Shown: positions 29,562-55,039 of the stretch, piece after piece | How the letters are laid out: the number at the start of each line of letters is the position of its first letter | Position numbering within the stretch: the first letter of the stretch is position 1 | Virus record (IMG/VR): IMGVR_UViG_2645727901_000008 | DNA: 64,000 nucleotides | Reading direction: 5' to 3' (one strand) | DNA from: a virus | Taxonomy: Duplodnaviria > Heunggongvirae > Uroviricota > Caudoviricetes | The notes under the pieces: model-generated | What the model was told of the DNA's origin: nothing | What the model saw: the letters and a program-made list of their open reading frames with translations, nothing else | The model's database searches: none | Program-made: the position numbers and the translations under genes

Positions 29562-29584
29562 ACTGCGTTAGCACTTTGAACATG

Positions 29585-29627: not shown

Positions 29628-29649
29628 ATAATATAAAGCATTAAAGTTT

Positions 29650-31337: not shown

Positions 31338-31642
31338 TAAATGTACTCTAATACATTCCGGGCCATTACGGGTTCTAACATATCTTCGCTAGTTACTTTG
31401 GTTAGCACCTGGGCGAGCGCCTTAGTGTGGCGTATCTCTACCGCGAGCGAGATGGACTCTCTGTGAGAAGGAATCTGTAATTGATCACCTTTATCTACAC
31501 TTAAGTTTGAGGCTTCTCTGATCACCTCATAAACCCGTAACTTTAACTGCTGTGACACTTCTTGTTGAGATGCTATAAGCTGAAGTACAGTCTTGATCAA
31601 CTTCAAAGAATCAGAAGCTTGCTGAGGAACCGCATAGAGCAT
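31337..31642 (-). CDS. Small protein, first gene of the three-gene cassette
   Basis: 101-aa ORF translationally coupled to the HExxH gene. Confidence 0.45.
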   Translation of the reverse strand: MLYAVPQQASDSLKLIKTVLQLIASQQEVSQQLKLRVYEVIREASNLSVDKGDQLQIPSHRESISLAVEIRHTKALAQVLTKVTSEDMLEPVMARNVLEYI

Positions 31643-31779
31643 AACCCCTCCTTTCCCTTATCTATAACCGCTTTCTTTTTTCTGTGTATGTTAAAAGTAG
31701 AAGCGGTTTTTACCTTTTGTAATATATATAGTGTCTAAAACTAACTTTGGCACTATATATGGCATGATATCTATGTTTT

Positions 31780-31821
31780 AAAGACACAAAAGCTCTGTTA
31801 AAACAGAGCTTTTGTGTCTTT
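31780..31821. repeat. Perfect 20-bp inverted repeat with 2-nt spacer
   Basis: AAAGACACAAAAGCTCTGTT-AA-AACAGAGCTTTTGTGTCTTT. Confidence 0.8.
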
Positions 31822-31967
31822 AACTTGATCATTTTCTCGCTGAAGTGTATGTCAGGCTTAGCTCATAATCAAGTTGCTTCCAAGCTAAAAATGAGCTAGC
31901 TCCCTGAAACACTAAGAGCGGGGTGTTTCATTTATTAGCGTTGGGCCTGACGGTGTGTAGGTGAATT

Positions 31968-32255
31968 TTAGCTCATTACTCGATAACGACGGGGAATGGA
32001 ATTCTCCATCAGGCCACGAATTACTCCCGCCTCACGTAGTTCCTCTGTCTCCCAGTATCTGTTTGTCACCAGATCGAGGCTGGCTATGACCTTGTGCCGG
32101 TCATTCGGCATAGCTAATTTTTCTGCTATAACCATCAGTGAAAACTCTTCATCCAGTAGAATTTGATAGCAGTTTTTTGATAGTTCCACTTCCCTTATGA
32201 GACTGAAACGTCGCTGGATTGTGGCAGTAGAGTAAGTGAAATCTATTTTCTTCAT
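31968..32255 (-). CDS. Hypothetical small protein downstream of ant
   Basis: 95-aa ORF. Confidence 0.4.
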   Translation of the reverse strand: MKKIDFTYSTATIQRRFSLIREVELSKNCYQILLDEEFSLMVIAEKLAMPNDRHKVIASLDLVTNRYWETEELREAGVIRGLMENSIPRRYRVMS

Positions 32256-32314
32256 CGTGCGGAGAATCCGATTATTTAGCAGTTAAAGCCCCGGACAGGC
32301 CGGGGCAACAGTAA

Positions 32315-33241
32315 TTAACTAACAATCCAGTCCATAGCAACCATATCCTCTGGCGCTAAATCAATAGCATGGATTTTCCCATCCCGGATAGTGCGCCAGT
32401 GCTTCCTTGATCCGCCTTCGGGCCATACCCATACACCTTCAGACCATGAGGCGCGACGGCATACCGTTGCATATCCACTTCTGATCTTCTCTCTGGCGGT
32501 ATGCAGTGACAGATTATCTTTTGGGATTTCCGGTAAAGGATGATGGATTGCCTGAAACAGCCCCATCTTGGGATGATACCAGCGTTTGTTGCGTGGTTCT
32601 GCCTCCGACATAACCTGCTTGAAGGCTTTCTGGAAGGGGGCCAGGGCCACAATGGAGCGTCGCGCAAGCAAACCATCTGGAGTTAAAAACTCATGCGTAT
32701 CGGTGGGAATCCGGAAAGCGTTAACCAGGTTGCGACATTTGGCTTCGGTCAGGCCACATTTCGCCGCCAGCTGGCGGTAGCCAATGTAGCCTTCCGGAAT
32801 ATTGCCTTTCTTTATTTGCTCGAGTGTTTCAGCGACCATCGATACTTGTGCTGATACCTCGGCTACCTGGGCATTTACGGCGTTGATCCGGCGTTCATGC
32901 TCAAGATGCATTTGCGCCATTTCAGCCAGGATTTCGGCTTTTGATTTTAACTGTACCCGGGCATTCTCCAGTTCGCGCCAGCGGTCCACCAGCCGGGCGG
33001 TGAATTCGGGAGAGAGCTGCGCGACGACGACAATACTATCGCGCTTGCCTTGCTCGCCTTCGAAGACGTAATAGCTCGCCGGGCGGCCTGCGGTGGGCTT
33101 TTCCTCAATTTGAGGAAAAGATATTACGCCCCGTTCCGCCAGGTGTTCAATGGTGCGTTTAACGTTATCAGGGCGCTTACCTACCAGTTCCGCGATCTCA
33201 ATGCTGGTCATTGTCGCTTTTTGAGAGATGGACAGATTCAT
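32315..33241 (-). CDS. ant: Antirepressor-like protein (Rha-like N-terminal region)
   Basis: N-terminal TSIEIAELVGKRPDNVKRTIEHL; start overlaps the upstream small ORF stop (ATGA); GGAGG RBS. Confidence 0.55.
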   Translation of the reverse strand: MNLSISQKATMTSIEIAELVGKRPDNVKRTIEHLAERGVISFPQIEEKPTAGRPASYYVFEGEQGKRDSIVVVAQLSPEFTARLVDRWRELENARVQLKSKAEILAEMAQMHLEHERRINAVNAQVAEVSAQVSMVAETLEQIKKGNIPEGYIGYRQLAAKCGLTEAKCRNLVNAFRIPTDTHEFLTPDGLLARRSIVALAPFQKAFKQVMSEAEPRNKRWYHPKMGLFQAIHHPLPEIPKDNLSLHTAREKIRSGYATVCRRASWSEGVWVWPEGGSRKHWRTIRDGKIHAIDLAPEDMVAMDWIVS

Positions 33242-33456
33242 CAGTGCGCCTCCACGCAGTTCATCGGCAGATTCCAGTAATTGAGGATCTCCATCGCATC
33301 AAGAGTGAAGCGAGCAGCAAAAATGCAGGGTTCTTCGGGAAGGTATGAGCGCGCCTCTGCTTCGGTAGCAGCCATGACGCAGATATACAGGTGTTTTTGG
33401 CAGGAATAGAAACGCCAGATAAATTCAGAATGAGTTGGGGTAGGGATAGTAGCCAT
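33241..33456 (-). CDS. icd: Icd-like small protein upstream of ant
   Basis: 71-aa ORF with AGGAGG RBS, positioned like P1 icd. Confidence 0.4.
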   Translation of the reverse strand: MATIPTPTHSEFIWRFYSCQKHLYICVMAATEAEARSYLPEEPCIFAARFTLDAMEILNYWNLPMNCVEAH

Positions 33457-33631
33457 ATTGGCAGCCTCCTTTGACTAAGTTAAGGAGCTACCGCGTGAGG
33501 TTCCAATCTCAATGGCGGTAGCACTGACTGGGTTGGAACTACCGGCGTCAAAGGGAACCGGCCTGCCTTTCGGCAGCCCAGCCAGCACTACCATTGATCT
33601 CTGAGCTAAACGCTACGTATGGCTGTGCGAT

Positions 33632-33720
33632 GGCATGACACAAAAAAAGACGCTTTCGGCGTCTGTGTCGCCTTTGACATTATCCGGGGTTCCAATCCCG
33701 GCACCCGTTTTTCTAAGGTG
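33632..33720 (-). ncRNA. Candidate c4-like antisense RNA
   Basis: Promoter-like region with operator-like GTAGAAATATA, then on the minus strand a hairpin (AGACGC-CGAAA-GCGTCT) plus U-run about 80 nt downstream; GGTTCCAATC-type elements recur in the icd leader. Confidence 0.35.
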
Positions 33721-33772
33721 CCGTAGAAATATACCCCACGATAATGCCAGGGCGCAACAGTCAGTATTTTAT

Positions 33773-33937
33773 GCTTTGGCGGATTTCTTCCGGGCTTGCT
33801 TGCAGGCGTAGGCCATTGCTTTAGCTTTCACTTCATCCAGCTTCCCGGTGATCGCTTCTTTTCCGAGAGTGACAAACCAGTCATAGCAACCGCCAGTGAT
33901 GTTCTGGATTTGAAAGTTGAGGTAGCGAACGGTCATT
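33773..33937 (-). CDS. Small hypothetical protein (54 aa), not in the ORF track
   Basis: ATG with GGGGGTG RBS-like upstream. Confidence 0.3.
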
Positions 33938-34256
33938 TTGACACCCCCAGCGCGAGTAAAGAATGCAGATTATCGCGTGAGTGGCGGACAACGAGTGATG
34001 GGAAAAGACAGTAGCTGTTCATAGTGTAGTGACTCCTTGCTTTCGGAGCCGCCATCGACTGTTCCACGGTCTGGTGGCGGCGCAATAAAGGCTGGAACAC
34101 CGTGAGTCAACGGGGGCTTTTCAGCCACCTATATTGCACCGCCATAGGTATAGCGGCGGCAATAATACGAAAAACTAAACAGTTTGTCTCAAAAAGTTGA
34201 CCGGTGTGCCAATCGGTAGTGAATGTACATCGGAGAAATTTACAATTCAACTTAAA

Positions 34257-34271
34257 ATGTTAGAAAACTAA
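34257..34271. promoter_or_regulatory. C1-type operator-like site ATGTTAGAAAACTAA
   Basis: Nearly identical to the site upstream of the c1-like gene; faces the sim-like/c4/icd/ant region. Confidence 0.45.
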
Positions 34272-34846
34272 TTTATCAATTCAATCGCCATCTGATACAA
34301 CGTCATTTCATCGGCATTGTGCCGCATGAAATCTGCTTTTCCGCCTATTTTTCCGTCAGCATGAACAGGGACCAGCCAGGGATATTGTTCTCGGACCTCG
34401 GCTGGCGCTGCGTACTGGTGGTGCCATTTACACAAAGGGAGGACATATTTATGCGCGTTCTCTGCCGTTCTCCCGAAGATATGGTGCAGGGATACTACTG
34501 GGCTATGTTGTCCGTGAATATGGCAGGCAATGCAGGGGAGAGTACCGATAGCGGTCTGTATCCGGCGTTCATCAGCTGTGAGTGATCTGCCCTTCAGGCC
34601 GCGTGACGTGCGTGTTTTTTTGGGCGGAGCGGATACAGCTTTATCTTTTCTCCGCTGTTCATATTGCTTTGCTTTTTCAATTTTCTTTTGCCGATATTCA
34701 GGCGATGCGGCTTTTTCTCTCGCTCGCTGCTGCTGGCGTTGAGCTTGTTGAAGGCGCTTTGCCCTTTGTTCCTCTCGCCAGGCCGGGTCAGCCAATTTTT
34801 GCATGGCTTTTTGTCTCTGTTTCTCCCAATAGCTCTGTTTCTGCAT
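34268..34846 (-). CDS. ref: Ref-like HNH endonuclease
   Basis: Lys/Arg/Gln-rich N-terminus then HNH-like core CIACHIHG...HHIFGR...CKWHH. Confidence 0.7.
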   Translation of the reverse strand: MQKQSYWEKQRQKAMQKLADPAWREEQRAKRLQQAQRQQQRAREKAASPEYRQKKIEKAKQYEQRRKDKAVSAPPKKTRTSRGLKGRSLTADERRIQTAIGTLPCIACHIHGQHSPVVSLHHIFGRTAENAHKYVLPLCKWHHQYAAPAEVREQYPWLVPVHADGKIGGKADFMRHNADEMTLYQMAIELIN

Positions 34847-34893
34847 GATGGCAGTCTCTTACTTTTCAATGATTTTTCTATGATTGATCAAAA

Positions 34894-34929
34894 CTGTTAG
34901 ATATTCAAAATTGATTTTCTAACACAAAA
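34894..34929. promoter_or_regulatory. Pair of C1-type operator-like sites in the divergent ref region
   Basis: CTGTTAGATAT and TTTTCTAACACAAAA. Confidence 0.5.
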
Positions 34930-35118
34930 CATTAATATCATTCCTGATAACTGTTTGGAGGACATGATGCTTATAGCTTTAAGTGCGATCCACCAGCCAT
35001 CTGTGAATGAAATTGGCCTGTTCTATGTGTTGTTTTTCGGGGCGTTGGCGCTACTTGAGCTTGGTATTGAGCTTTTCGCAGTGCTTATGTTTTGCGTCAC
35101 GATTTTGGGGAAATTTTG

Positions 35119-35742
35119 ATGGTGAAACGAGTTTTGAAAATTTACATCGCGGGGCCGATGACTGGTTATCCAGATTACAACCGTGCTGCGTTTAATGCGA
35201 AAGCGAGCGAGCTGATGGCTGAAGGGCATATCGTTCTGAATCCAGCTGTGTTACCTGGTGGCCTTTGTCAGAGTGAATACATGGATATTTGCCTGGCAAT
35301 GGTGCGTTCTGCTGATGCGATCTACTTGCTCAATCGATGGGAGGAATCGATTGGTGCTCGTGCAGAGCACGCGCTGGCTGAAAAGCTGGGGCTGACTGTA
35401 ATTTATGAATCACCAACCAACATTGAATGCCAGGTTGCTCCGCATATTTACCGGGAACTGGTCAATGCGTTACGTGATGTTGCTATTGAATGTCACGGCA
35501 CGGATCAGCTTCGCGCTCGCTTAAGCCAAACCCTTTCCAGTTACCTGTCTTTGGCTGAAGGATACAACCTCCGACAGCGAAGAATGGTCAAATTAATCAC
35601 TCTTTTATCGCAATCCCTTGCAAATGCTGAACCAACCAATCCGCTACCTGGTGACGCAATGAATTATCTGAAGTCATGCGGTGTTGTTTCTGAAGATGCA
35701 GTTCGTTTTGTGGAGTTTATGTCTCGGAGGATGTCGGCGTGA
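35119..35742 (+). CDS. Nucleoside 2-deoxyribosyltransferase-like (DUF4406-like) protein with distinct C-terminal module
   Basis: N-terminal KIYIAGPMTG...NP motif; C-terminal about 35 aa paralogous to the 43835 protein. Confidence 0.45.
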   Translation: MVKRVLKIYIAGPMTGYPDYNRAAFNAKASELMAEGHIVLNPAVLPGGLCQSEYMDICLAMVRSADAIYLLNRWEESIGARAEHALAEKLGLTVIYESPTNIECQVAPHIYRELVNALRDVAIECHGTDQLRARLSQTLSSYLSLAEGYNLRQRRMVKLITLLSQSLANAEPTNPLPGDAMNYLKSCGVVSEDAVRFVEFMSRRMSA

Positions 35743-36056
35743 GCTGGCGGGGATGGGGAAGGGCAGAAATCATGATACTCCGCCAGTGCGCCGGAACTAT
35801 GACGGTAGAGAGTATTGGGAAGCTGATCGGTCGTACCGGTGATGCCGTCAGGACTAAAGCGCGGGAGCTGGGGATCAGCATGATTCTGAAAGGAGACTTT
35901 CATCCGTCAGCCAAATACCGGCAGAGCGATATAGAACTGGCACGGCAGCTTCATCAGTGTGGTGTTCCCCGCCGTGAGATCGCGGAAAAACTCGAAATGC
36001 CCCTGGGCATGATTAATCAGTACGTTTATTTCGAAAGGAGAGTACATGAAGTCTGA
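35739..36056 (+). CDS. Small HTH-like protein
   Basis: 105 aa, overlaps the upstream stop. Confidence 0.4.
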   Translation: MSWRGWGRAEIMILRQCAGTMTVESIGKLIGRTGDAVRTKARELGISMILKGDFHPSAKYRQSDIELARQLHQCGVPRREIAEKLEMPLGMINQYVYFERRVHEV

Positions 36057-36471
36057 AGGTTTAACGCCAGAGCAACTGGCGGAGCGTAACGCTCAGTATG
36101 TGACGGAAATTTCCCGTCTTGAGAAAGAGCGCGCGGCGCTGGCGGCGGAGAATGCAGGGCTAAAGGCGATATGTGATGACTGTCGCAGGTTCATCATGAA
36201 TGGTGTGCAGATGGGTTATATCAAGGTGCCAACAGCGGAAACAGATCCAGACCTTGAGACAATACGTATTGCTATATCACCACAAAAGCCCATTCCAGCC
36301 ACCGATGCTTTTCTGGCTGAAGTCCGGGCACAGGGATTGGAGATGTTTGCTCAGAAATGTAACTCAAAATCAGAACAGTCGATTGCATCTGATATACGCG
36401 ATAACTGGAAACTACTCGGTGAACATGCCACTGACTTTGCCGCAGAGCTTCGCAAGGGAGGGAAACAGTGA
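36046..36471 (+). CDS. Hypothetical protein
   Basis: 141-aa coupled ORF. Confidence 0.4.
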   Translation: MKSEGLTPEQLAERNAQYVTEISRLEKERAALAAENAGLKAICDDCRRFIMNGVQMGYIKVPTAETDPDLETIRIAISPQKPIPATDAFLAEVRAQGLEMFAQKCNSKSEQSIASDIRDNWKLLGEHATDFAAELRKGGKQ

Positions 36472-36716
36472 GTAATTCAGCACGACTACAGCTTGGTTTT
36501 TCACCGCTATCAAAAACCATCGTGTTGGCAAAAATGCGTGACTTAGGGGATGGAACAAAACGTCGTGTTGGCAATGATCGCGGTCGTGATGTAACCAACG
36601 AGGCCGCTCAACTCGTCTGGCATCTGGTCATGGCAGAAGGCGGTGAAATTAATTGGGAGCTGGATGATGGTTCGCGCATGGTATTGAAGGCAGAAAAGCA
36701 GGAGCCACCACAGTGA
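36468..36716 (+). CDS. Hypothetical protein
   Basis: 82-aa coupled ORF. Confidence 0.4.
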   Translation: MSNSARLQLGFSPLSKTIVLAKMRDLGDGTKRRVGNDRGRDVTNEAAQLVWHLVMAEGGEINWELDDGSRMVLKAEKQEPPQ

Positions 36717-37006
36717 ATATCGACACCACGATAACGATCGATACGGCCCTCAACACAGGTTTGGCCCTGCTCGGTTGGTTTTACATCATGTTCAGTGCGG
36801 GGAAGTGGGCGGCCTCTGTTTTTCTAAAGCAGTGGGGAAAGCGCCGCAAACAGGAGATACGCCAGAAAGCGTTAGAGGCGTTCTATGACGCCTTTGAACT
36901 TAGCCGCATTGAGCCTGGCACAACAGCCAGGGTAGCAACAAAAGATGACCTGATGATCGTGATGTTCCGACAGGAGAAAGCAAATGGCAGCAAAGCGAAT
37001 GACTAA
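36713..37006 (+). CDS. Small membrane protein
   Basis: 97 aa with N-terminal TM helix. Confidence 0.4.
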   Translation: MNIDTTITIDTALNTGLALLGWFYIMFSAGKWAASVFLKQWGKRRKQEIRQKALEAFYDAFELSRIEPGTTARVATKDDLMIVMFRQEKANGSKAND

Positions 37007-37208
37007 TCGCGAACTTGTTGATGCCGCGATTGAACTTGCTGGCGATTTTTATTCCATGATGGGGTACACGCATCGCCCAGGCTTCAAATATTGGGAGTCT
37101 CCGCACCCGCAAGAGCAACGGGTATTTCAAATGGCCTGTCGCGCTTTTGAAGTTATTCGCGGTTCTGATGTGATGGACGCGATTGCTGATTTGGAGGATG
37201 AAGAGTGA
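36984..37208 (+). CDS. Hypothetical protein
   Basis: 74-aa coupled ORF. Confidence 0.35.
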   Translation: MAAKRMTNRELVDAAIELAGDFYSMMGYTHRPGFKYWESPHPQEQRVFQMACRAFEVIRGSDVMDAIADLEDEE

Positions 37209-37516
37209 ACACAATTAAAGAAATGCCGGTAGAACGTGATGAATATGGCTGCTGGACACATCCGGAGTATGAGAAGTTTTGCGCAGGTCGTGAATATATT
37301 TCCACTGAGGAATTTGACGCCTGGATGAAGGAAAATAATCTTCAGTGGACTATTCGCAGTATGGATGAAGATGATTTTGATCTGGACGCAGCTGGTCCCG
37401 ATATTGCCGCCTGGGAACCGGAGCGACCAGAAGGTGAAGGCTGGTTTGTTGGCTCTATTCATGACACTGAAGATGGTCCAGTTTGTATCTGGCTGCGGGA
37501 GAAGGTTGCCGCATGA
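37205..37516 (+). CDS. Hypothetical acidic protein
   Basis: 103-aa coupled ORF. Confidence 0.4.
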
Positions 37517-38205
37517 TCCAAGCTATGCATGAAGTGAATTTATATAGCCGTATTGATGGTTCTGGCTACAGAAACATATGGGTAGTTGGTGATCTGCATG
37601 GTTGCTACACCAGACTGATGTCCGAACTCCATCGTGTGGATTTTGACCCGGCGCAGGATTTACTGATATCGGTTGGCGACCTTATCGATCGCGGTACTGA
37701 AAATGTCGAATGTCTGGAACTATTACAGATGCCCTGGTTCAGGGCAGTAATGGGGAACCATGAGCGGTTGATGCTTGATGCGTTAAGTCCTGATGGCAAC
37801 GTGAATAACTGGCTAATGAATGGCGGACAATGGTTCTTCATGCTGGACACTGATCAGGAAATATTAGCCAAGGCGCTGGTGGAGCTGGTAAAGCGTCTGC
37901 CATATATCATTGAGTTGAACACCGGACATGAAACTATCGTTATAGCCCATGCCGACTATCCAGGTGGAGAGTACCAGTTCGGTAAGGATGTATCGCTTTT
38001 TGATGTTGTCTGGTCGCGCAGTCGCGTCGGTGATTCGATAGATGGCATTGGTGGAGAAATCACAGGCGCAGATCGCTTTATCTTTGGGCACACACCGGTA
38101 CGAAGACCAAAAGCATACTGGAATCAGCACTACATAGACACGGGCGCGGTTTTTTGTGGAAATCTGACGCTAATGCAGGTGAAGGGAGGGCAGCTTAAAG
38201 TCTGA
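37513..38205 (+). CDS. ppp: Lambda-type Ser/Thr protein phosphatase
   Basis: Metallophosphatase motifs GDLHG, GDLIDRG, GNHE; ATG 37513 overlaps the upstream stop. Confidence 0.8.
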
Positions 38206-38228
38206 TCAAATCATTTACGCACTCAAAA

Positions 38229-38263
38229 TGCGTTAGAACATTGATTTTAGTTTTCTAACATAT
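38229..38263. promoter_or_regulatory. Inverted pair of C1-type operator-like sites
   Basis: CGTTAGAACA ... TTTTCTAACATAT upstream of ATG 38303. Confidence 0.5.
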
Positions 38264-38302
38264 TATTTTACCACTCGGAACAAAACAGAGTCGGTATGCA
38301 TT

Positions 38303-39298
38303 ATGAGTGCAATAATCACCCCATATGTCGTAAATGAAACTGGTGTGGCTGTCTTTCCGGTAGACAAGCCCACCAGCAACTACATCGGCGCAGGTCGCCG
38401 TTTCATTATCTCACCACTTCCGCGAGAACAGGCTGAAAACACTCCAGATGGCGTAGTGGATCTGAATTATTCGCTGGTTGCCAACCAGTCGCTGAAACCA
38501 TTTTTTCAAAGCGAGCGCGTATTTAACGCGTTAGGCGGTGAAGATTCGCTTGTTCATTGGGTAAGTTCCAATATCCACGATTGCCAGGCGCACGATAAGC
38601 GCGATTGCAGCCACCAGCTAACCACTCATTTCTATAACGGCTCTGCCGTTCGCCTGTGCTGGAAGCATGATGCGGAATACATGATGAAGGGGTACAGCAA
38701 GCTGGACGACCAGTTATCCCTGAATCGCGCCAACTGGGTTATGAACTGGGCTGCGAGCGAGTTAAAACTACCGCCAGAACGCGATCTGAGCATGGTTGAA
38801 CTCACTTTTTGGGCCATTCGCCGGAATCTGAAAGATGAGCTGCCAGATGAAGCCGGGCGCATTGCATTTTGTCAGCCAAAAACTGAAATCCCTACCGGTA
38901 CGCTGAAAGAATCAGATATCACCTGGGAGCACAGTACCCGCGAGCTGGTGGACATAACCGCAGAGCAGATCGTCAACCTGTCTGTAGATGAGGATTCCGG
39001 CCTGCTTTATATGCGCCGACCAAAAGCGGTCCTCGGTAAAAGCCCAGCTTATCTCCGGTTTGTGGTTTCTCGTCCGTGCATCGGATGCGGTGGCAAAGTT
39101 AACCACCCGTTCATGTACCGCGCCCGCTCGTTAAACGAACACGACCGCTGGGCTGTTCCTCTTTGTGATGACTGCGCCAGAAGCGCAGAACACGATGTCC
39201 GGGCATGGGAAAAAGCACATGGCATACGCCTTTATGTAGCCGCTAACCAGCTTTTCGACTTCGCCATCGAGCGCGGAGTGATCACGTTCAATAACTGA
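38303..39298 (+). CDS. Hypothetical operator-controlled protein with C-terminal Cys cluster
   Basis: 331 aa; CIGCGG...CDDC. Confidence 0.45.
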   Translation: MSAIITPYVVNETGVAVFPVDKPTSNYIGAGRRFIISPLPREQAENTPDGVVDLNYSLVANQSLKPFFQSERVFNALGGEDSLVHWVSSNIHDCQAHDKRDCSHQLTTHFYNGSAVRLCWKHDAEYMMKGYSKLDDQLSLNRANWVMNWAASELKLPPERDLSMVELTFWAIRRNLKDELPDEAGRIAFCQPKTEIPTGTLKESDITWEHSTRELVDITAEQIVNLSVDEDSGLLYMRRPKAVLGKSPAYLRFVVSRPCIGCGGKVNHPFMYRARSLNEHDRWAVPLCDDCARSAEHDVRAWEKAHGIRLYVAANQLFDFAIERGVITFNN

Positions 39299-39311
39299 TG
39301 GGAACAACGCA

Positions 39312-39611
39312 ATGAGTCAAGGTAACGGTGGTGGAGCTGCAAAGTGCAGAATCTCCACTTGTTTGATTAATGGCAGAAAAATAGAACCGTGCGCGGCGCT
39401 GGCACAATCTCTGGAGCAGGATGCTGAATACACGACGCGAAAAGGCCTGCTGAAATACAAAGTCTATAACCATGAATTAATTCATTCACAGGACCTGATC
39501 ATGCTGCGGTCTGGTGAATTTTCTAAATCGCCTATTCGAGTTTCATTTTGCCCATTCTGTGGTGAAAGTCTGAAAACGTGGGAAGCGGAGGCAACCAGTG
39601 AGCAAAATTAA
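39312..39611 (+). CDS. Small Cys-containing protein, paralog of 41104-41367
   Basis: Shared KCRI..G..IEPCA and FCPFCGESLKTW motifs. Confidence 0.4.
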   Translation: MSQGNGGGAAKCRISTCLINGRKIEPCAALAQSLEQDAEYTTRKGLLKYKVYNHELIHSQDLIMLRSGEFSKSPIRVSFCPFCGESLKTWEAEATSEQN

Positions 39612-40056
39612 CTATCAAGAACTGCGCGAGGCGGCGGAACAGGCAACGCAAGATGAATGGGTAGCATATATTTTGCCGGGTCATAACGGCATTTATCCTG
39701 CGCGCACGTCTGAAGGTAGGCATTGCGGATACTTTATTGACTGGCCTGGCATTGATGGACAAAGGAATGCTGGTGCTAATGCCCGTTATATCGCGGCTAT
39801 CCCACCAAAAGTTGCACTGTCACTCCTAGGCGAAATTAAGCGCCTGGAGGACAAAAATATTGATGCCATGTGCCAAATTGCAGAGCTGGAGAGCAATCGC
39901 GCGGCGCTGGCGGCGGAGCATGGTATTCAGATTGCAATAAATGAACTGCTTGCTCTGGCCCCGCGTCTGGATAAACGAGCGATGGATGCACTCTCTGTGG
40001 CTGTGGAGCACCTGTGTAAACTGATTAAGAAGGAGGCAGTCAGTGAGCAAAATTAA
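39598..40056 (+). CDS. Ead/Ea22-like protein (MSKINYQ family, copy 1)
   Basis: GTG start with GGAGG RBS; N-terminus shared with two downstream paralogs. Confidence 0.45.
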   Translation: MSKINYQELREAAEQATQDEWVAYILPGHNGIYPARTSEGRHCGYFIDWPGIDGQRNAGANARYIAAIPPKVALSLLGEIKRLEDKNIDAMCQIAELESNRAALAAEHGIQIAINELLALAPRLDKRAMDALSVAVEHLCKLIKKEAVSEQN

Positions 40057-40723
40057 TTACCAGGCACTGCGTGAGGCGGCAGAAAAAGCACTACATGGTG
40101 AATGGGGTTACGAGGCAGGGGCAATCTGGAATACCTGTGATAGCGGCTATGTTCAGCACATGGCAGCGGTCGAGACTGGCGATGATGTTAGCGATGAAGA
40201 GCATATGAGCAATATGCGTTTTATCACGCTCGCCACGCCAACTGTTGTTCTTGGATTGCTTGATGAGCTTTCTGAAGCTAAAGCTGCCGAAGAGAATGAG
40301 TCCAGTTGTGCTAACAGCGTTATCGACATCGCTATCAACTGGCAGATGCGAGCCAAAGATGCAGAAGCCAAGCTGGAAGCCGCAGAGAAGCGCATTGCGG
40401 AACTGGAAACAAAAGCGAACCAGCAAACCAGAATAAGCGATAAGAATCTGACCAGGCTGATTGCCGATGCTGACAAAATGCTGGGTATGCGTTCGCCGGT
40501 TATAGACAGCGAGTGGTGGACGCTTTTACGGCAGTTCCTGATTGAACTTCAGGATCGCCGCAGAAACAGCATTTCTGAATCTGGAATCCGTGCTGAAACC
40601 CTGAATGATTTAATCCGACATATTGACAGAAACCTGGATATTGACGCGATGAAATCGCCGTTTGAACTGTCATCTGAAATTGTGGATTACGTTAATAGGC
40701 AACTGCACAAGGAGAATTCGTAA
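40043..40723 (+). CDS. Ead/Ea22-like protein (copy 2)
   Basis: Same N-terminal module; coiled-coil centre. Confidence 0.45.
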   Translation: MSKINYQALREAAEKALHGEWGYEAGAIWNTCDSGYVQHMAAVETGDDVSDEEHMSNMRFITLATPTVVLGLLDELSEAKAAEENESSCANSVIDIAINWQMRAKDAEAKLEAAEKRIAELETKANQQTRISDKNLTRLIADADKMLGMRSPVIDSEWWTLLRQFLIELQDRRRNSISESGIRAETLNDLIRHIDRNLDIDAMKSPFELSSEIVDYVNRQLHKENS

Positions 40724-40942
40724 TGCAGGTGGCATTTGTTGGCCTGTTACCGCATCCGATCCGCCTTTGGGCGGATATGTCACTCATAAAAACGCATTTT
40801 TTTACTACTGATGGCGGCATTCCGGCACCAAAGCGCCGTCATACCGGTATTGCAGCGGCACGACGAGCAGCAAAGAGACGCAGGAGAGCAAAGCGATGAA
40901 AAACCGTAAAGCAAATAAAGTGGCAAAACAGGAGGCGGCGCA

Positions 40943-41119
40943 GTGAACCAGCAAACCAGAATAAGCGATAAGAGCCTGACCAGACTGATTGCCGATGCGG
41001 ACAAGGTGCTGGAGCGGAACACACCCGTTGCCGATGAGGAATGGTGGCAGGATTTCCGGGCTGCAATGCTGGAACTTCAGGAACGTCGTCGGGAGGAGTT
41101 GAAGTGAGTGAATTAAAGT
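40943..41119 (+). CDS. Short ORF duplicating the C-terminal part of copy 2 (possible gene fragment)
   Basis: About 60-bp direct repeat of 40425-40490; GTG start with AGGAGG RBS. Confidence 0.3.
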
Positions 41120-41367
41120 GTCGAATTAATGGCAATCAGATAGAACCGTGTGCGGTACTGGCAAAAGCACTCGAATATGGAAATCCAGCCTTTAAGAGTA
41201 AAGGCATATTTATCCCGGAACGCGTGAATATAAATACCGGCGAGCCAGGCTTAGACATTGCTCAAATTCACTCCGGCCAATATGTCGGTCGTGGTGTTGC
41301 CATGTGTTTTTGCCCGTTCTGTGGTGAAAGTCTGAAAACATGGAAAAAGGAGGCAACCAGTGAGTGA
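41104..41367 (+). CDS. Small Cys-containing protein, paralog of 39312-39611
   Basis: GTG 41104; same FCPFCGESLKTW C-terminus. Confidence 0.4.
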   Translation: MSELKCRINGNQIEPCAVLAKALEYGNPAFKSKGIFIPERVNINTGEPGLDIAQIHSGQYVGRGVAMCFCPFCGESLKTWKKEATSE

Positions 41368-41914
41368 AGTTAACTATCAGGCACTGCGTGAGGTGGCAGA
41401 GGCCGCGAAGGGGGATACGACGTGGCAGAACCTACAGGCTTTTCATGCTGCGGCAACGCTGGAGGTTGTGCAGGCGTTGCTGGATGAAAACGAAAGACTG
41501 TGTCGCGATCTGATAGCTCGTAATGGTGAGATTGAAGGGCTTCGGGAGTGGGCAGAAGAACTGGAGGCACGGGAAGTGGCTTTGCCAGTAGCGTCATGCA
41601 TTGTTGAAGATGGATGCATGTGTGTTGATGGGTTCAGTGAGTATGTAGGTCACTCGCTACCTGATGGAATGCATGAGCTTTATGCTGCCCCACCAGCGTC
41701 GGTAGTGCCGGAAGGACTAGTTAAAGCAGTGCGTTTCTATGAACAGGTAAAGTGTGAGAATCCGCCAGTCGAAACCGGAGCATGGAAAGACGCTATTGAC
41801 TGGGTGCTCAAAGAGGCTTGCCAGGCTGTAAACATTGGCATCAAAGGAGAGAGATATGGCAACTTTAACAAAAAAAGAACAAGCATGGTTGAACGAATTA
41901 CAGGACGTTCTTGA
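41360..41914 (+). CDS. Ead/Ea22-like protein (copy 3)
   Basis: N-terminus MSEVNYQALREVAE. Confidence 0.45.
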   Translation: MSEVNYQALREVAEAAKGDTTWQNLQAFHAAATLEVVQALLDENERLCRDLIARNGEIEGLREWAEELEAREVALPVASCIVEDGCMCVDGFSEYVGHSLPDGMHELYAAPPASVVPEGLVKAVRFYEQVKCENPPVETGAWKDAIDWVLKEACQAVNIGIKGERYGNFNKKRTSMVERITGRS

Positions 41915-42119
41915 TCGCTGTCCGTCACCGAAAAAAATAGGCTTTTACACCATTGGCGATAAAAACATTTACCTGTATGACCTACGCCGCATGGATGTAA
42001 TCATGGAGGCTCTTGATAATCGTTCGTCGATGGATTGGTGTGCTGCTGTCCATGATATGAATGCCGGATTTGATGAAACGATTTTGTTCCCCTCATCAGT
42101 TGAAAGCACTGCGGGTTAA
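41856..42119 (+). CDS. Hypothetical protein
   Basis: ORF overlapping the previous gene end. Confidence 0.35.
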   Translation: MATLTKKEQAWLNELQDVLDRCPSPKKIGFYTIGDKNIYLYDLRRMDVIMEALDNRSSMDWCAAVHDMNAGFDETILFPSSVESTAG

Positions 42120-42129
42120 GGAGTAACAC

Positions 42130-42513
42130 ATGACCACTATTACCAAAGAACGTATTGAATTGTTCATTAAAAATCCGCTTGAAAACGGACTTACCCGTGG
42201 CGAACAAATGGAACTGGCACGAATTGCACTGGCCTCGCTTGAGGCAGAGCCAGTTGGTGCATTCCACATTGCTGAACAGCAAGTTGACGGCACAAGTGAC
42301 TACATCAAGGATGGGGAGTGGCCTATTGATAATGGGACAATTGAAGTCTACGCCGCCCCGCCAGTACCGGTAGTACCTGCTGCATTACCTGAGAACGACG
42401 ATGAGGACGGGCAGGACATTGATTATCTTGAGCCATCTGAAGTTTACGCGCTTGGGCGAACAGCTGGCTGGAACGCCTGCCGTGCTGCCATGCTTAAGGG
42501 AGATAAATCATGA
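42130..42513 (+). CDS. Hypothetical protein
   Basis: 127-aa ORF with GGAG RBS. Confidence 0.4.
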   Translation: MTTITKERIELFIKNPLENGLTRGEQMELARIALASLEAEPVGAFHIAEQQVDGTSDYIKDGEWPIDNGTIEVYAAPPVPVVPAALPENDDEDGQDIDYLEPSEVYALGRTAGWNACRAAMLKGDKS

Positions 42514-42881
42514 TTAATCGTACCAAGCTGGAGCACATCCTCGAATATGCCAGACAGCAGAAGCGCTTTGGTCAGCATTGCAAAATTCCGCCAGGAGATA
42601 TGGTTGAAATCGTGGAGATTGCCATGCGTAAGGCTGGCAACTATCCGGTAACTCCGGATAGTTGGATAAGCTGTAGTGATCGAATGCCTGAAAAGGGCCA
42701 GAACGTGCTTATTTCGGTGAATTTCGATAGCTCTCTGGTTGAACCGCTAATATGCTCCGCACGCTATACCGGAAGCACCTTTCGGCGCGGAGATGCAACG
42801 ATTAAGCCGGGTAATGGTATTGAGCAAGCAACTCACTGGATTCCGCTACCGGAACCGCCGCAGGAGGTTAACCGTGGCTAA
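42510..42881 (+). CDS. Hypothetical protein
   Basis: 123-aa coupled ORF. Confidence 0.4.
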   Translation: MINRTKLEHILEYARQQKRFGQHCKIPPGDMVEIVEIAMRKAGNYPVTPDSWISCSDRMPEKGQNVLISVNFDSSLVEPLICSARYTGSTFRRGDATIKPGNGIEQATHWIPLPEPPQEVNRG

Positions 42882-43155
42882 CCTGCAACTTGCCGTCAAA
42901 GGTGAATACTTCGATGCCATGATTCGCGGGGAGAAAACAGAAGAATATCGCCTGTGTAATGACTACTGGAATAAGCGAATTATGTTCCGGGAATATGACC
43001 GCCTGATTATCACAAAGGGATATCCGAAGCGCGACGATTCCAGTCGCAGAATAGACGTCCCGTATAACGGATATGAAATCAAGACAATCACACATCCGCA
43101 CTTCGGTGATAAACCGGTAAAGGTGTTCGCGATAAAAGTGAAGATTAATAGCTAA
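42874..43155 (+). CDS. ASCH-like small protein
   Basis: GTG 42874 overlapping the upstream stop. Confidence 0.35.
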   Translation: MANLQLAVKGEYFDAMIRGEKTEEYRLCNDYWNKRIMFREYDRLIITKGYPKRDDSSRRIDVPYNGYEIKTITHPHFGDKPVKVFAIKVKINS

Positions 43156-43178
43156 ATTTCAATTAACACGGAGTAATT

Positions 43179-43472
43179 ATGTGGCGCGGTAATAATCATG
43201 GCGGAAGCCAGATGATACTTACCGAATATACGTTCGACCCCAAAACCTATAAATCACGTTCAGTATATTTGCTTCGGCACAATAGCCGCGTAAGGAATAC
43301 CGTGCTGGAGCAAAATCTGACCGTTGAAATGGATAATTTTGGGAACTTCAAGCCAACAATTGCGCTTGATGATTTTCCGCGTGGTTTAAGCGAAAGAGAA
43401 GCAATGCTGAAATTAGCAGAATGGCTACAAAGATTAAGCATTGCTATTGAAGATAACTGGTCTGAACCTTAA
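43179..43472 (+). CDS. Hypothetical protein
   Basis: 97-aa ORF. Confidence 0.35.
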   Translation: MWRGNNHGGSQMILTEYTFDPKTYKSRSVYLLRHNSRVRNTVLEQNLTVEMDNFGNFKPTIALDDFPRGLSEREAMLKLAEWLQRLSIAIEDNWSEP

Positions 43473-43478
43473 ATTTAT

Positions 43479-43853
43479 ATGATGACACTAAAACATTTTC
43501 TTGACCGCCCATTATGGGCGGCAGCCGCAGGCTATGATTTTAATTATATGGATTGCATGTCTTATACTGCCAATGCATACGACCATTCGTTCAGCCTGCT
43601 GTTTAATTCTTTAAGAATATTGCCGGAAACAGAAGTTGGAGAGCTTCATTTATGGCTATTGGGTTTTATCGCGGCTGTCGTTGGTATTGCTGTATGGCCT
43701 TTTATTTTCTGGCTGGTGGCTGTTGTAGTGTGGTTTAAGTGCAAGACATACCGGAAAAAGTATTTCTTAGGTGATGGAATGACTGATATTGCCAAAATGA
43801 ACATTGAAAAATGGACTAAGGAATGTGAAAAGAAATGGCGCAAAAAGAAATGA
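43479..43853 (+). CDS. Membrane protein
   Basis: TM segment LWLLGFIAAVVGIAVWPFIFWLVAVVVWF. Confidence 0.4.
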   Translation: MMTLKHFLDRPLWAAAAGYDFNYMDCMSYTANAYDHSFSLLFNSLRILPETEVGELHLWLLGFIAAVVGIAVWPFIFWLVAVVVWFKCKTYRKKYFLGDGMTDIAKMNIEKWTKECEKKWRKKK

Positions 43854-44458
43854 CCAGAATCACTGAAGAGCGTATATCAGAGATTATTTCCCGTATCGAA
43901 ATGTATGGTCACGGAGCTGGATATACGGCAGATGAAGTATTGGAAATAGCCCAGCAGATGCTGGCCTTGAGACAAAAAGAGCAACATGAAAGTAATACGT
44001 GTAGATTGAATTTTGAGCAGTGGCTGGAACAGCAACGCGGGAAAATCGATGTGGACTGTGGTTGTGTGTCCACTGAAACATTCATGCACTGGCTGCGGGT
44101 AGCTTACGAGGCTGGCAACTATCCGGATATTCCGGATAGTTCGGCGCAAGCACCAGGGAAGGGGGGGTTCCCCGGAGAGCGGATCCGAATTAAGCCGCAT
44201 GTTTACCGTGAACTGGTTAACCGCCTCCACGATACAGCGATCAAGTGTGCTGGCACCCAGCAATTACGGGAAAGAATTAGCCGCGTTTTGGGCGAAGTTA
44301 TTACACCAGATCGTCATAAACAAGCCGAGAAAAGCGGCCTGGAAAGGAGTCATCTTGAGGCGGCATTAAACATTAAACCGGGGCATACGCTAGGTGTCAT
44401 TGATGCCATGTTGGTTCATGAAATGGCTAAGGCGTTATTGCCACTGGAGGCTGATTAA
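43835..44458 (+). CDS. Hypothetical protein sharing a C-terminal module with the 35119 protein
   Basis: PHVYRELVNRLHDTAIKCAGTQQLRERISRVL vs PHIYRELVNALRDVAIECHGTDQLRARLSQTL. Confidence 0.4.
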   Translation: MAQKEMTRITEERISEIISRIEMYGHGAGYTADEVLEIAQQMLALRQKEQHESNTCRLNFEQWLEQQRGKIDVDCGCVSTETFMHWLRVAYEAGNYPDIPDSSAQAPGKGGFPGERIRIKPHVYRELVNRLHDTAIKCAGTQQLRERISRVLGEVITPDRHKQAEKSGLERSHLEAALNIKPGHTLGVIDAMLVHEMAKALLPLEAD

Positions 44459-44521
44459 ATTCCGGATAAAGCTGATATCTGATCACCATGCTAAAATCCC
44501 CTCAATTCACAGAGGGGATTT

Positions 44522-44794
44522 TTGTATATGTTGCGTAGATTTTTAGGTAAAAGCGTTATTGTCGGTGCGATGTTGGCTATGTCTGGGTGTGCTATGGTGC
44601 AATACAATGACGGAGAAAAGGTTAGCATCCAGTCAGATGGTTGGTATGGCCTGGATAGCCTGCAAAAAACAGCGGATAAAGCCTGCCAGCAATACGGAAA
44701 GTCTAAAGCCGTATATCAGCATAGCGCGAACGCTAACCCTCATCTTGCGCCCGGTTCGGGTGTTCAGAATACCATCTGGAAATGTGAGCCTTAA
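44522..44794 (+). CDS. Small lipoprotein
   Basis: Signal peptide with lipobox LAMSGC. Confidence 0.5.
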
Positions 44795-44796
44795 AC

Positions 44797-45045
44797 ATGA
44801 GCGACTGGAATATTGCAGCCAAAAGTCAGGAAGAACGGGATAAGGTTAACGTAGATCTGGCTGCCAGCGGTGTGGCGTACAAAGAGCGATTGAACATACC
44901 AGTCATAGCGGAACAGGTGGCCAGGGAACAACCTGAGCACTTGCGTGCATATTTCATGGAAAGACTACGTTATTACCGCGAGCAGAGCGTGAAACTACCA
45001 AAAGGAAGTGATCCGGTATATCAAAAGGCAGATCCACAAAAATAA
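44797..45045 (+). CDS. hot: Pol III theta-subunit homologue (P1 Hot-like)
   Basis: [39 protein letters not shown] matches HolE as recalled. Confidence 0.75.
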
Positions 45046-45120
45046 GCCTTTTCAATAAGCTATATCACCACCAGCTAAAAAATACATTCTGACTTGCATG
45101 AAATGCGCCCTTTAGCGATA

Positions 45121-45140
45121 TACTGTATATAAACACAGTA
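45121..45140. promoter_or_regulatory. LexA (SOS) box overlapping the humD promoter
   Basis: TACTGTATATAAACACAGTA fits CTGT-N8-ACAG; TTGCAT and TATACT promoter-like hexamers nearby. Confidence 0.65.
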
Positions 45141-45156
45141 TTTAGGAGGGCGTATA

Positions 45157-45549
45157 ATGGGATTCCCATCACCAGCAGCCGATTTTGCTGAAAGCAGAAT
45201 TTCGCTTGACGCACAATTCATCAAACGACCAACCGCAACATATTTCATGCGGGCCGCCTGCTCACATCTCCGTGAGGGGATTTTGCAAGGTGCAATGCTG
45301 GTGGTTGATTCATCTCTTCCACCACTGGATGGTTCTCTACTCATATGTGCCGTAGAGGGAGAATTTCGCGTAAAGCGATACCGCAAGCATCCTCGCCCAC
45401 ACCTTGAGGATCTGGAAAGCGGAAGACGTGAGTCACTGCCAGATGATGATGACAGCAGCTATTCCGGGAGTCAGGCCATATTCGGGGTAATCACATACAT
45501 CATTAACGATGCCAGGAGTGGGGAATTTGATGATTGCCCGGTGATTTAA
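45157..45549 (+). CDS. humD: UmuD-prime homologue HumD
   Basis: 130 aa S24-peptidase-like core lacking the N-terminal arm; AGGAGGG RBS; LexA box upstream. Confidence 0.8.
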   Translation: MGFPSPAADFAESRISLDAQFIKRPTATYFMRAACSHLREGILQGAMLVVDSSLPPLDGSLLICAVEGEFRVKRYRKHPRPHLEDLESGRRESLPDDDDSSYSGSQAIFGVITYIINDARSGEFDDCPVI

Positions 45550-45621
45550 GCTGCAAAGAGCTGGTGCTTTATGCTTGTGAAGTTTATACTTGTGTACACA
45601 TAACGAGTACACGAGGTGTTT

Positions 45622-45843
45622 ATGCAATCCATTAACTTCCGTACCGCGCGTGGCAACCTTTCTGAAGTGCTCAACAATGTTGAAGCCGGGGAAGAGGTTG
45701 AAATCACCCGCAGAGGCCGTGAGCCAGCAGTAATTGTCAGCAAGGCTACTTTCGAAGCCTACAAAAAAGCGGCGCTGGATGCTGAATTTGCATCCCTGTT
45801 TGACACCCTGGACTCCACCAACAAGGAACTGGTTAACCGATAA
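45622..45843 (+). CDS. phd: Phd antitoxin
   Basis: [49 protein letters not shown] matches P1 Phd as recalled. Confidence 0.95.
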
Positions 45844-46223
45844 TGAGGCATATATCACCGGAAGAACTTATTGCGCTTCATGATGCGAATATAAGCCGCT
45901 ACGGCGGCCTGCCGGGAATGTCAGATCCGGGTAGGGCAGAGGCCATTATCGGGAGAGTTCAGGCCAGAGTTGCCTACGACGAGATCACCGACCTTTTCGA
46001 AGTCTCCGCCACCTACCTGGTGGCTACGGCGAGAGGGCATATATTCAATGATGCCAATAAGCGTACCGCGCTAAACAGTGCGCTGCTATTTCTACGCCGT
46101 AACGGTATACAGGTATATGATTCTCCCGTGCTGGTGGAACTTGCGGTGGGGGCCGCAACTGGTGAAATCCCCGTATCTTCAGTAGCGGAAAAACTACGTG
46201 AATTATTTGGTTCCAATATTTGA
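45843..46223 (+). CDS. doc: Doc toxin (Fic-fold)
   Basis: 126 aa, start overlaps the phd stop; [11 protein letters not shown] Fic-type motif. Confidence 0.95.
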
Positions 46224-46306
46224 AAAGAAGCCCGCTCAACCAGGCGGGCTTCCTACTATCACTCAATGATTTTTTCTGCTGTCAGCCAGCTAATTCGGTG
46301 ATGTTT

Positions 46307-47113
46307 TTAGGCGTCAGCATCAGCATCCTCCGCTACCTCTGCTTCCACATCAGCCACGGCTTCATCGGACGGTTCTTCTTTGGCCTGATCTGCAATCGCC
46401 GCACGGCATTTCGCCCTGGCTGTAGCGATTGCTTCAGCTCGCACATCATCAGGAATCGTTGACGTGATATACATATCCACTTCTTCGGCGCGGAACACTG
46501 TTTGGTCCAGATATTCGCGTAGCATCCAGGTAAATTCGAAATCACACGCGATAATCTCTGCGCTACCTTCTGCACCATTTGAGAAATGAATAAATGCCTG
46601 TTTAGCCAAACCGATAACACGACATGCGGTTGCCAAAACAGCGACAACTAGGTTTACATTTTCACACGCTACGGGCTGATTAACGCCGGAGATTACTCCA
46701 TTTAACTGTCGGTTATATGGAAGGTAGTTTGAGATGCGTTCTACGCGCCATGTGCCAGTCAGGCTGCCATTTTTAAATATAATTGGTGTAACGGATAGCC
46801 CAAGCTCGCGTATAAGTCGTTGCGCTATAGCAGGATCATTAAACAGGTCTAATGCTATACATTCGAAAGACTGCGCAAGGGCAAACAGTTCTTCCAGAGA
46901 GTAGTCTTTGCCCCTGGCGGTGATGTAACGACGAACGCCGCTGTCTGCATCACTCCATATAGCTACGCCATGCTCTTCATTCAGCACTTCATTAAAGCCG
47001 AGATACGTCATGATAGTGCGTTCAATCGTGTCAAACGGCAGTGACATGTCGGCGTTAACAGCCACCAGCAGGCCATTACGCAAGCGGTATTGAATTGTTT
47101 TGGTGCTTTCCAT
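46307..47113 (-). CDS. Hypothetical protein with acidic C-terminus
   Basis: 268-aa ORF. Confidence 0.4.
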   Translation of the reverse strand: MESTKTIQYRLRNGLLVAVNADMSLPFDTIERTIMTYLGFNEVLNEEHGVAIWSDADSGVRRYITARGKDYSLEELFALAQSFECIALDLFNDPAIAQRLIRELGLSVTPIIFKNGSLTGTWRVERISNYLPYNRQLNGVISGVNQPVACENVNLVVAVLATACRVIGLAKQAFIHFSNGAEGSAEIIACDFEFTWMLREYLDQTVFRAEEVDMYITSTIPDDVRAEAIATARAKCRAAIADQAKEEPSDEAVADVEAEVAEDADADA

Positions 47114-50493: not shown

Positions 50494-50594
50494 AATTTTC
50501 TAAATTGGATGACAAAAAAATGCATCTTGATCCTTTACTCACCCTGTTATTCGGCATAGATTTGTCATAGTAATTTTATGTTAGAAAACTAAAT
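50494..50594. promoter_or_regulatory. Operator-like sites upstream of the c1-like gene
   Basis: ATTTTCTAAAT (about 50494) and ATGTTAGAAAAC (50578-50589). Confidence 0.45.
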
Positions 50595-50606
50595 CGAGTA
50601 GGAATA

Positions 50607-51644: not shown

Positions 51645-51649
51645 TCACA

Positions 51650-55026: not shown

Positions 55027-55039
55027 TAAATACCTAACG

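Follow-up and report, generated by a model that had tools for sequence, protein, structure and literature searches.

A mosaic array of Ead/Ea22-like genes in a D6-type phage-plasmid, and the repeated gene-start sequence at one of its joins

Why should three genes within 2.6 kb of phage DNA begin with nearly the same sequence, and what does the repetition say about how they came together? The question is raised by a gene array at positions 39312-41914 of IMG/VR record IMGVR_UViG_2645727901_000008, a virus of the Caudoviricetes, of which a stretch of 64,000 nucleotides (nt) was analysed, called the window here. The array holds three Ead/Ea22-like genes (ead1, ead2 and ead3), two small genes with conserved cysteines (Cys1 and Cys2) and two further short open reading frames (ORFs). 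An earlier note, made from the sequence alone, had read it as a tandem array of duplicated modules, recently shuffled by recombination in an early region of the genome; its observations are partly confirmed and its interpretation is partly supported. Our analysis makes it highly probable that the array belongs to a mosaic accessory segment of a phage-plasmid of the D6 type, that the repeated junction is the start cassette of ead genes and enables exchange, and that the array is a product of such exchange. The features on which the argument depends are the following (aa, amino acids).

39312-39611, plus strand: Cys1, 99 aa, phrog_4030 (the P7 Upf87.4 family; E=7e-41), corresponding to D6 orf99
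39587-39661, plus strand: junction 1, with a GGAGG ribosome-binding site (RBS), GTG at 39598 and the first ~21 codons of ead1
39598-40056, plus strand: ead1, 152 aa, Ead/Ea22-like (PF13935, 68.0 bits)
40032-40106, plus strand: junction 2, with an RBS, GTG at 40043 and N-terminal codons of ead2
40043-40723, plus strand: ead2, 226 aa, Ead/Ea22-like (PF13935, 56.2 bits)
40414-40560, plus strand: internal segment of ead2 homologous to ORF54, from the repeat search
40723-40899, plus strand: ORF58, 58 aa, arginine-rich, phrog_13831 (E=1.6e-24)
40943-41107, plus strand: ORF54, 54 aa, GTG start, phrog_14672 (E=6e-34)
41104-41367, plus strand: Cys2, 87 aa, GTG start, phrog_4030 (E=2.8e-29)
41349-41423, plus strand: junction 3, with an RBS, GTG at 41360 and N-terminal codons of ead3
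41360-41914, plus strand: ead3, 184 aa, Ead/Ea22-like (PF13935, 49.4 bits)

The repetition itself is well founded. The junction, which had been described as about 35 bp long and present three times, corresponds to the 31-nt pattern GGAGGCANNCAGTGAGNNAANTTAANTANCA; it matches at exactly 39587, 40032 and 41349 and had 0 matches in 100 shuffles, and a repeat search lengthened the match to 75 nt, with identities of 80% and 69%. Self-comparison thus finds repeats well beyond short motifs, with lengths of 75, 93 and 71 nt. The 93-nt repeat (86% identity) covers the 3′ end of the Cys genes together with the junction, and a further one of 50 nt (78%) lies near their 5′ end; both Cys genes carry the common C-terminus FCPFCGESLKTW, as had been claimed. 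The 71-nt repeat (40414-40484 versus 40942-41012, 90% identity) is the internal duplication of the earlier note, and weaker matches at the same 528-nt offset carry it on to 40560 in the ead2 copy and 41088 in the ORF54 copy. Three ORFs do begin with (M)S(K/E)(I/V)NYQxLRE, at GTG codons 39598, 40043 and 41360, and their Ead/Ea22-like identity is borne out by scores above the Pfam gathering cut-off for PF13935 (Ead_Ea22), which is 27 bits. The description of the three as adjacent is right for ead1 and ead2 but not for ead2 and ead3, which are separated by three small genes.

If a Cys-ead unit had been duplicated in tandem on the spot and its copies had then diverged, an arrangement of this general kind would result. 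The order Cys-junction-ead occurs twice, in the same orientation and 1762 nt apart, with the 93-nt repeat in common, and arrays of two or three ead genes are common in relatives. The paralogs, however, are far too dissimilar for a recent event: ead1, ead2 and ead3 are 36-38% identical at the amino acid level, with identity limited to the N-terminus and a few helical positions, and Cys1 and Cys2 are 44% identical overall; what the paralogs have in common is confined to short terminal motifs. ORF54 and residues 126-178 of ead2 are 62% identical over 53 aa. Copies that had arisen in place would be expected to be each other's closest relatives, and these are not; comparison by blastn finds far nearer relatives for each part of the array in a different replicon.

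Block A, 37001-40084 (compared from 37001; it may extend upstream): 99.8% identical to E. coli plasmid NZ_JBYCWU010000003 (L001)
Block B, 40030-40915: 97.9% identical to the Salmonella IncY P1-like plasmid NZ_CP030188 (L135), which has an ead2 of the same length, 226 aa
Block C, 40927-41849: 97.2% identical to a Mu-like prophage of enteropathogenic E. coli (EPEC) E2348/69 (L002), where ORF54, the Cys gene and ead are annotated as three genes
Block D, from 41833-41853: about 95% identical to lambdoid phages such as PhiR49_2

Judged by these alignments, the array is a mosaic of at least four blocks with different provenance. Because paralogs that are 36-44% identical in protein sequence lie in blocks that are 97-99.8% identical in DNA sequence to other replicons, the array points to exchange between phages and not to local duplication. 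Each Cys-ead unit has such a near-identical copy elsewhere, and the second unit and ORF54 form a single block in the Mu-like prophage, all of which makes duplication in place very unlikely and already largely refuted. The earlier idea of recombination-driven module shuffling is thereby sustained, by the blocks and by the ends of homology in junctions 1 and 2 discussed below, while that of a tandem array raised by local or recent duplication is not. The same evidence bears on the proposal that the internal duplication had created a 58-aa fragment ORF. The ORF that carries the repeat is 54 aa long, the 58-aa ORF is a different gene (phrog_13831), and the two copies of the repeat lie in blocks B and C. 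ORF54 spans the 56 positions of phrog_14672 end to end and has its own AGGAGG-N8-GTG; since it is thus a free-standing, recurrent family with its own RBS, and the copies are divided between two blocks, no fragment was generated in place. ORF54 and Cys2 are both called as genes in independent assemblies.

Comparison with relatives extends this picture. Related phage-plasmids and prophages have between one and three ead/Ea22-like genes at the corresponding position, several of which are flagged as partial, and among the phage-plasmids the copy number does vary from 1 to 3, as the comparison suggested by the earlier note had anticipated. The combination of three strict MS[KE][IV]NYQ starts with two Cys genes was seen in the window alone within a sample of 134 loci, although RefSeq annotation nonetheless gives three ead-like genes in L001, L007 and L011. 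Gene content differs in each relative examined.

No record in the phage collection, in 5,426 complete E. coli genomes or in PLSDB holds more than 53% of 39200-42200, and short repeats could confuse short-read assemblers, so that one may ask whether the contig is a chimera of reads joined wrongly at the junctions. We consider the chance of such an artefact next to negligible. An exact-protein look-up found the same gene order in four separate assemblies (GCA_001266335.1, two independent SRA-run assemblies and one ENA metagenome), all 100% identical to the window over 1.5-6.7 kb; every ORF is intact and coupled to its neighbours, and the repeats, at 31-93 nt, are below typical read length. The contig of GCA_001266335.1 that bears the identical array, JHTE01000033.1, is 178.7 kb long, roughly double the 91 kb of phage D6, which might reflect a cointegrate, an integrated copy or a join made in assembly.

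What, then, is the junction? Each of the three copies opens with (A)AGGAGG; after 6 nt comes a GTG start, and the codons that follow spell S-K/E-I/V-N-Y-Q-x-L-R-E-x-A-E. Inside the junction the upstream gene stops: Cys1 and ead1 end in EA(T/V)SEQN, with TAA stops that sit 14 nt into the following gene, and Cys2 ends in EATSE. From its composition the junction is best described as the conserved translation-start cassette of ead/Ea22 genes, about 15-20 codons that encode MSKINYQALREAAE, and no special element; with its overlapping stop and start, its layout is to all appearance arranged for translational coupling. We assessed codon-level conservation in 28 distinct ead loci picked by the peptide motif and not by DNA. 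GTG is the start codon in 23 of them, and the RBS is conserved too, whereas several third-codon positions vary, with pairwise identities of 0.48-0.58 at N5, Y6, Q7, R10 and A13. That the RBS and GTG are kept while third positions drift indicates that conservation mainly reflects constraint on the protein and on the RBS. At least 120 IMG/VR stretches carry the junction pattern, and the matches listed form an island of conservation from about -20 to +60 around the junction, with near-random sequence upstream; they join 26 classes of upstream sequence to 23 classes of downstream sequence, in 56 different pairings.

Three well-conserved direct copies of a sequence that recurs in many genomes with different flanks would also be expected of a dedicated cis element, either the site of a site-specific cassette recombinase, as in integrons or shufflons, or a structured regulatory RNA. 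This reading appears extremely unlikely. The junctions had no match in Rfam at a permissive E-value, the folds of the three were no more stable than those of shuffled sequence (z-scores from +0.01 to +1.15), the repeat search reported no inverted repeat inside any of them, and integrase and invertase families had no match among the neighbouring ORFs scanned. The RBS, start codon and N-terminal codons account for the full sequence, their third positions vary as described, and the breakpoints considered next are spread over the junction with no single fixed base.

An indication that the start cassette has served in exchange comes from the positions at which homology with relatives ends. Blocks A and B overlap at 40030-40084, 55 nt inside junction 2, and in a three-way alignment the window agrees with L001 as far as the start codon and, starting about 30 nt beyond it, with L135; homology ends in junction 2 for L001, L005, L006, L010 and L135. 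In junction 1 the match with D6 breaks at 39629, and those with P7, L006, L007 and L010 break at 39601-39606, P7 and these plasmids having a upf87.6-like gene between the Cys gene and the ead1 orthologue. Taking as a trace of homologous recombination a switch that falls within a stretch of lower identity, still above background, at the edge of a block more than 90% identical to another phage, we find such traces at the A/B join in junction 2 and at the D6, P7 and plasmid breaks in junction 1, and none at the B/C or C/D joins. Other breakpoints recur in short conserved motifs within genes, at 39366 (the INGxxIEPC motif of Cys genes), 39750, 39918 and 41685 (the YAAPP linker of ead3).

A model of illegitimate recombination and selection of the Hendrix type, in which random joins survive at gene boundaries and the junction is constrained by function only, we hold to be unlikely but far from negligible. 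It draws on the joins between blocks B and C (40915/40927) and C and D (~41850), which have no flanking homology beyond a few bases, on the variation of synonymous sites in the peptide-selected loci, where protein and RBS constraint explains the conservation, and on the finding of De Paepe et al. that traces of homologous recombination occur at only ~30% of mosaic boundaries (PMC3945230). Against it, on the other hand, stands the overlap of the homologies of A and B over 55 nt of junction 2, which is what a crossover between matching sequences should leave behind. In junction 1, homology with several independent relatives ends within the same few bases, and breakpoints recur at the intragenic motifs at 39366, 39750 and 41685, which are not gene boundaries.

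We therefore return to homologous exchange at the start cassette as the preferred reading, and several observations weigh against it. Sequence shared at the B/C and C/D joins amounts to no more than RBS-level microhomology, and homologous exchange at the junction is consequently not the whole explanation; of the three internal joins, one (A/B) lies in the repeated junction, and at junction 3 there is no homology break in any sampled relative. The core of junction 2 in the window (40051-40075) reads AAAATTAATTACC (K-I-N-Y), whereas L001 and L135 both have AAGATTGACTATC (K-I-D-Y), which implies that the true parents were not sampled. The three junction zones, 4.6% of the query, contain 44 of 219 homology endpoints, in a pooled sample selected by the junction and composed of related members, so the excess is indicative and yields no valid p-value. 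On the protein side, the roles proposed for the ead and Cys proteins rest on analogy with lambda Ea22, the C-terminal domain of ead3 is weakly modelled by AlphaFold (predicted local distance difference test, pLDDT, below 50), and the AlphaFold model of a Cys protein from an 18-sequence alignment (pLDDT 39) is unusable.

With these reservations, we propose that the 55-90-nt cassette, which many otherwise unrelated temperate phages carry, would offer enough match for homologous recombination, a service that other short conserved motifs, namely both ends of the Cys genes and the YAAPP linker, might render alike. The agents, we infer, would be host RecA or phage recombinases acting within homologies of 55-93 nt, and the outcome would be the swapping, insertion or deletion of whole genes or sub-genic modules. 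The present array would then have come about through such exchanges together with some joins at gene boundaries without homology. The model predicts that the direct repeats should also support deletions, of 445 bp between junctions 1 and 2 and of 1762 bp between junctions 1 and 3. A bolder version, which seems to us improbable, holds that the start cassette and the linkers (the Cys-gene ends, LASLEAEPV and YAAPPxPVVP) are kept partly as a universal recombination handle, and that paralogs of one array co-assemble, by way of the N-terminal and coiled-coil scaffold common to them, into mixed oligomers with different C-terminal domains. If it were true, temperate phages of the lambdoid, Mu-like and P1-like groups could use the handle to exchange effector cassettes, although these groups otherwise rarely recombine with one another.

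The setting of the array agrees with its accessory character. By megablast, phage D6, a P1-related phage-plasmid, is collinear with the window over 1-39619 and 50497-64000, with identities of 98% (1-20000), 95.5% (20000-39619) and 92.6% (~50500-64000). Collinearity is lost at 39619-39629, inside junction 1, and returns in megablast at ~50.5 kb; a single blastn match to D6 lies within the variable segment, at 44110-44454 (88% identity). The array thus falls inside a hypervariable accessory segment of ~39.6-44.1 kb, which measures ~4.5 kb in the window as against ~2.2 kb in D6, and it lies between ppp/pdcB-like genes and hot-humD-phd-doc, homologues of hot, humD and phd/doc lying downstream. Going by this collinearity, we identify the window as a D6-type (P1-related) phage-plasmid with the array in its hypervariable accessory segment, a position to which one of the published hypervariable regions of P1-like phage-plasmids (region 8, pmgT-humD) corresponds (PMC9603915). 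The early region named in the earlier note is therefore an accessory operon of a D6/P1-type phage-plasmid and not a lambdoid early-left operon; the exo-xis part of the latter is not where the array lies, a difference of context that does not define the family.

The operon runs on the plus strand from near 35.1 kb, and overlapping start and stop codons occur nearly throughout the array (14, 14, 1, 4, 8, 59 and 4 nt), the ATG of ORF58 overlapping the stop of ead2 (TAATG) and the GTG of Cys2 that of ORF54 (GTGA). Over 34500-46500, sigma-70-like promoter matches are depleted (3 found versus 17.2 +/- 4.5 expected), and the first strong and only convincing plus-strand terminator is at 44493-44522, a pattern that fits one long coupled operon. 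In P7 the equivalent 'hea' operon is under C1 operators. The consensus of the P1 C1 operator, ATTGCTCTAATAAATTT, has no match in the whole window within 3 mismatches, so that no control of the operon by a P1-type repressor could be demonstrated; D6-type elements presumably use another repressor specificity. D6 has a gene for a Ref-like RecA-filament endonuclease, associated with recombination enhancement (L134 13991-14569, or window ~34.3-34.9 kb by collinearity); this gene for a RecA-dependent nuclease is divergent from the start of the accessory operon, and an hrdC-like gene annotated as a 'recombination-associated exonuclease' lies further upstream in D6. The genes on either side of the array are these.

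38303-39298, plus strand: DUF968/HNH gene, 331 aa
41856-42119, plus strand: 87-aa gene, phrog_1714 (E=3.8e-49), at the start of block D, overlapping ead3 by 59 nt
42130-42513, plus strand: 127-aa gene, from the ORF list
42510-42881, plus strand: DUF551 gene, 123 aa

What the array might encode can be approached through the Ead/Ea22 family. Every array ORF matches a recurrent PHROG family; NCBIfam has no family for any of them, and PADLOC defence models had no matches. A chorismate-mutase-like assignment of ead1 was rejected, the NCBIfam match being sub-threshold (18.8 bits, where the cut-off is 73). In the AlphaFold model of ead3, residues 6-18, 22-31 and 34-73 are helical, with block-mean pLDDT of 67-83, and this predicted layout matches the published N-terminal segment, coiled coil and variable C-terminal domain of Ea22. 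In the homologue alignment, N-terminal, insert, coiled-coil and C-terminal modules are combined in many ways, DUF551 fusions among them. The Ead/Ea22 architecture is thus recovered in the helices of the ead3 model, in the alignment of the paralogs over their N-terminal and helical parts and in interchangeable C-terminal modules, the coiled coil being putative. Sequence searches of solved structures with ead2, ead3 and Cys1 gave nothing significant (best E-values 0.02-0.5), the C-terminal regions of ead2 and ead3 included. By analogy with Ea22, the ead proteins are probably oligomerisation scaffolds, made of an N-terminal helix and a coiled coil, that bear interchangeable C-terminal domains. 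Like their lambda counterpart, they may not be needed for lytic growth, and they may affect host physiology or the choice between lysis and lysogeny. For the Cys family, at least 90% conservation of C17, C27, C80 and C83 among 18 sequences suggests small zinc-binding proteins, which are probably co-translated with the downstream ead gene.

Several genes in and around the array are themselves composite. The match of ead1 to 25 IMG/VR loci ends at ~39750 and that to two plasmids at 39918, and with another plasmid it resumes at 39811, so that ead1 is itself chimeric. Its copy in L001 (L001 3399-3722, in the 99.8% block) is labelled 'incomplete; missing C-terminus' by PGAP; despite that label, the reading frame of ead1 is unbroken, and four assemblies have it as a gene of 152 aa. 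In ead3, the last ~20 residues (ending in GERYGNFNKKRTSMVERITGRS; window 41850-41914) are a read-through across the C/D join; most ead3 homologues end in NIGIKGE, and the extended tail is also found in a few database proteins (P0060, P0122 and P0128). The 127-aa ORF (42130-42513) contains the linker motifs LASLEAEPV, YAAPPVPVVP and GWNACRAAML, which it has in common with relatives of the ead3 C-terminal domain, so that sub-genic shuffling reaches beyond the ead genes. In protein P0058, the N-terminus of a 74-aa ORF of the window (36984-37208; beginning with MAAKRMTNRELVDAA) is fused to the C-terminal half of the Cys family (ending in MLRSGEFSKLPVRVSFCPFCGESLKTW), another cross-gene chimera from the same operon.

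The array is an ordinary, well-resolved case of temperate-phage mosaicism in a known family, and it calls for no new mechanism and no new family. Its value lies in the base-level illustration that it affords: within 2.6 kb it joins blocks that recur in an E. coli plasmid, a P1-like plasmid of Salmonella, a Mu-like prophage and lambdoid phages, and it allows one crossover to be located inside a conserved gene-start cassette of 55 nt. Annotators should take the 54-aa and 58-aa ORFs as real recurrent genes and should neither merge the three ead genes nor treat them as duplicates.

Among known systems, the nearest to the ead genes is lambda Ea22, which forms tetramers and favours lysogeny; its short N-terminal segment is followed by a coiled coil and a C-terminal domain that varies. 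Tetrameric assembly and the pro-lysogenic effect have been shown for the Ea22 of lambda and of Stx phages (PMC10834534, PMC7093339). Lambda ea22 and the equivalent region of P1 are non-essential (PMC10695390), and Ea22 genes are mosaics in which a common N-terminus and coiled coil are combined with unrelated C-terminal domains (PMC10834534). In common with lambda Ea22 and P22 Ead (PF13935, IPR025153; including the variants of Shiga toxin (Stx) phages), the window genes have the N-terminal segment of the family and a helical region that resembles a coiled coil, and the C-terminal domains of ead1, ead2 and ead3 differ from one another as those of the published mosaics do. In contrast to lambda, where there is a single copy in the exo-xis early region, the window array has three, in an operon of the D6/P1 type.

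In position, the array is equivalent to hypervariable region 8 of P1-like phage-plasmids (pmgT-humD) with respect to hot-humD-phd-doc; the publication on that region covers gene presence and absence and not junction sequences (PMC9603915). It also resembles the 'hea' operon of P7 (upf87.4, upf88.3), in which Upf87.4 belongs to the Cys family and Upf88.3 is ead/Ea22-like. Unlike region 8, it stands in a backbone of the D6 type and not of P1.

Diverged homologies as short as about 30 bp suffice for phage recombinases, which thereby generate mosaics (PMC3945230, PMC2327257). As in the relaxed homologous recombination described by Martinsohn (2008) and De Paepe (2014), the array has blocks more than 95% identical bounded by stretches of lower identity, here junctions 1 and 2 (75 nt at 69-80%), and sub-genic fragments are exchanged in it as well as whole genes. 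It departs from that pattern in that two of its three internal joins are without a homology trace. It also departs from it in range: De Paepe et al. saw recent exchange confined to either the lambda-like or the P1-P2-Mu group (PMC3945230), whereas this one array mixes blocks shared with P1-like plasmids, a Mu-like prophage and lambdoid phages.

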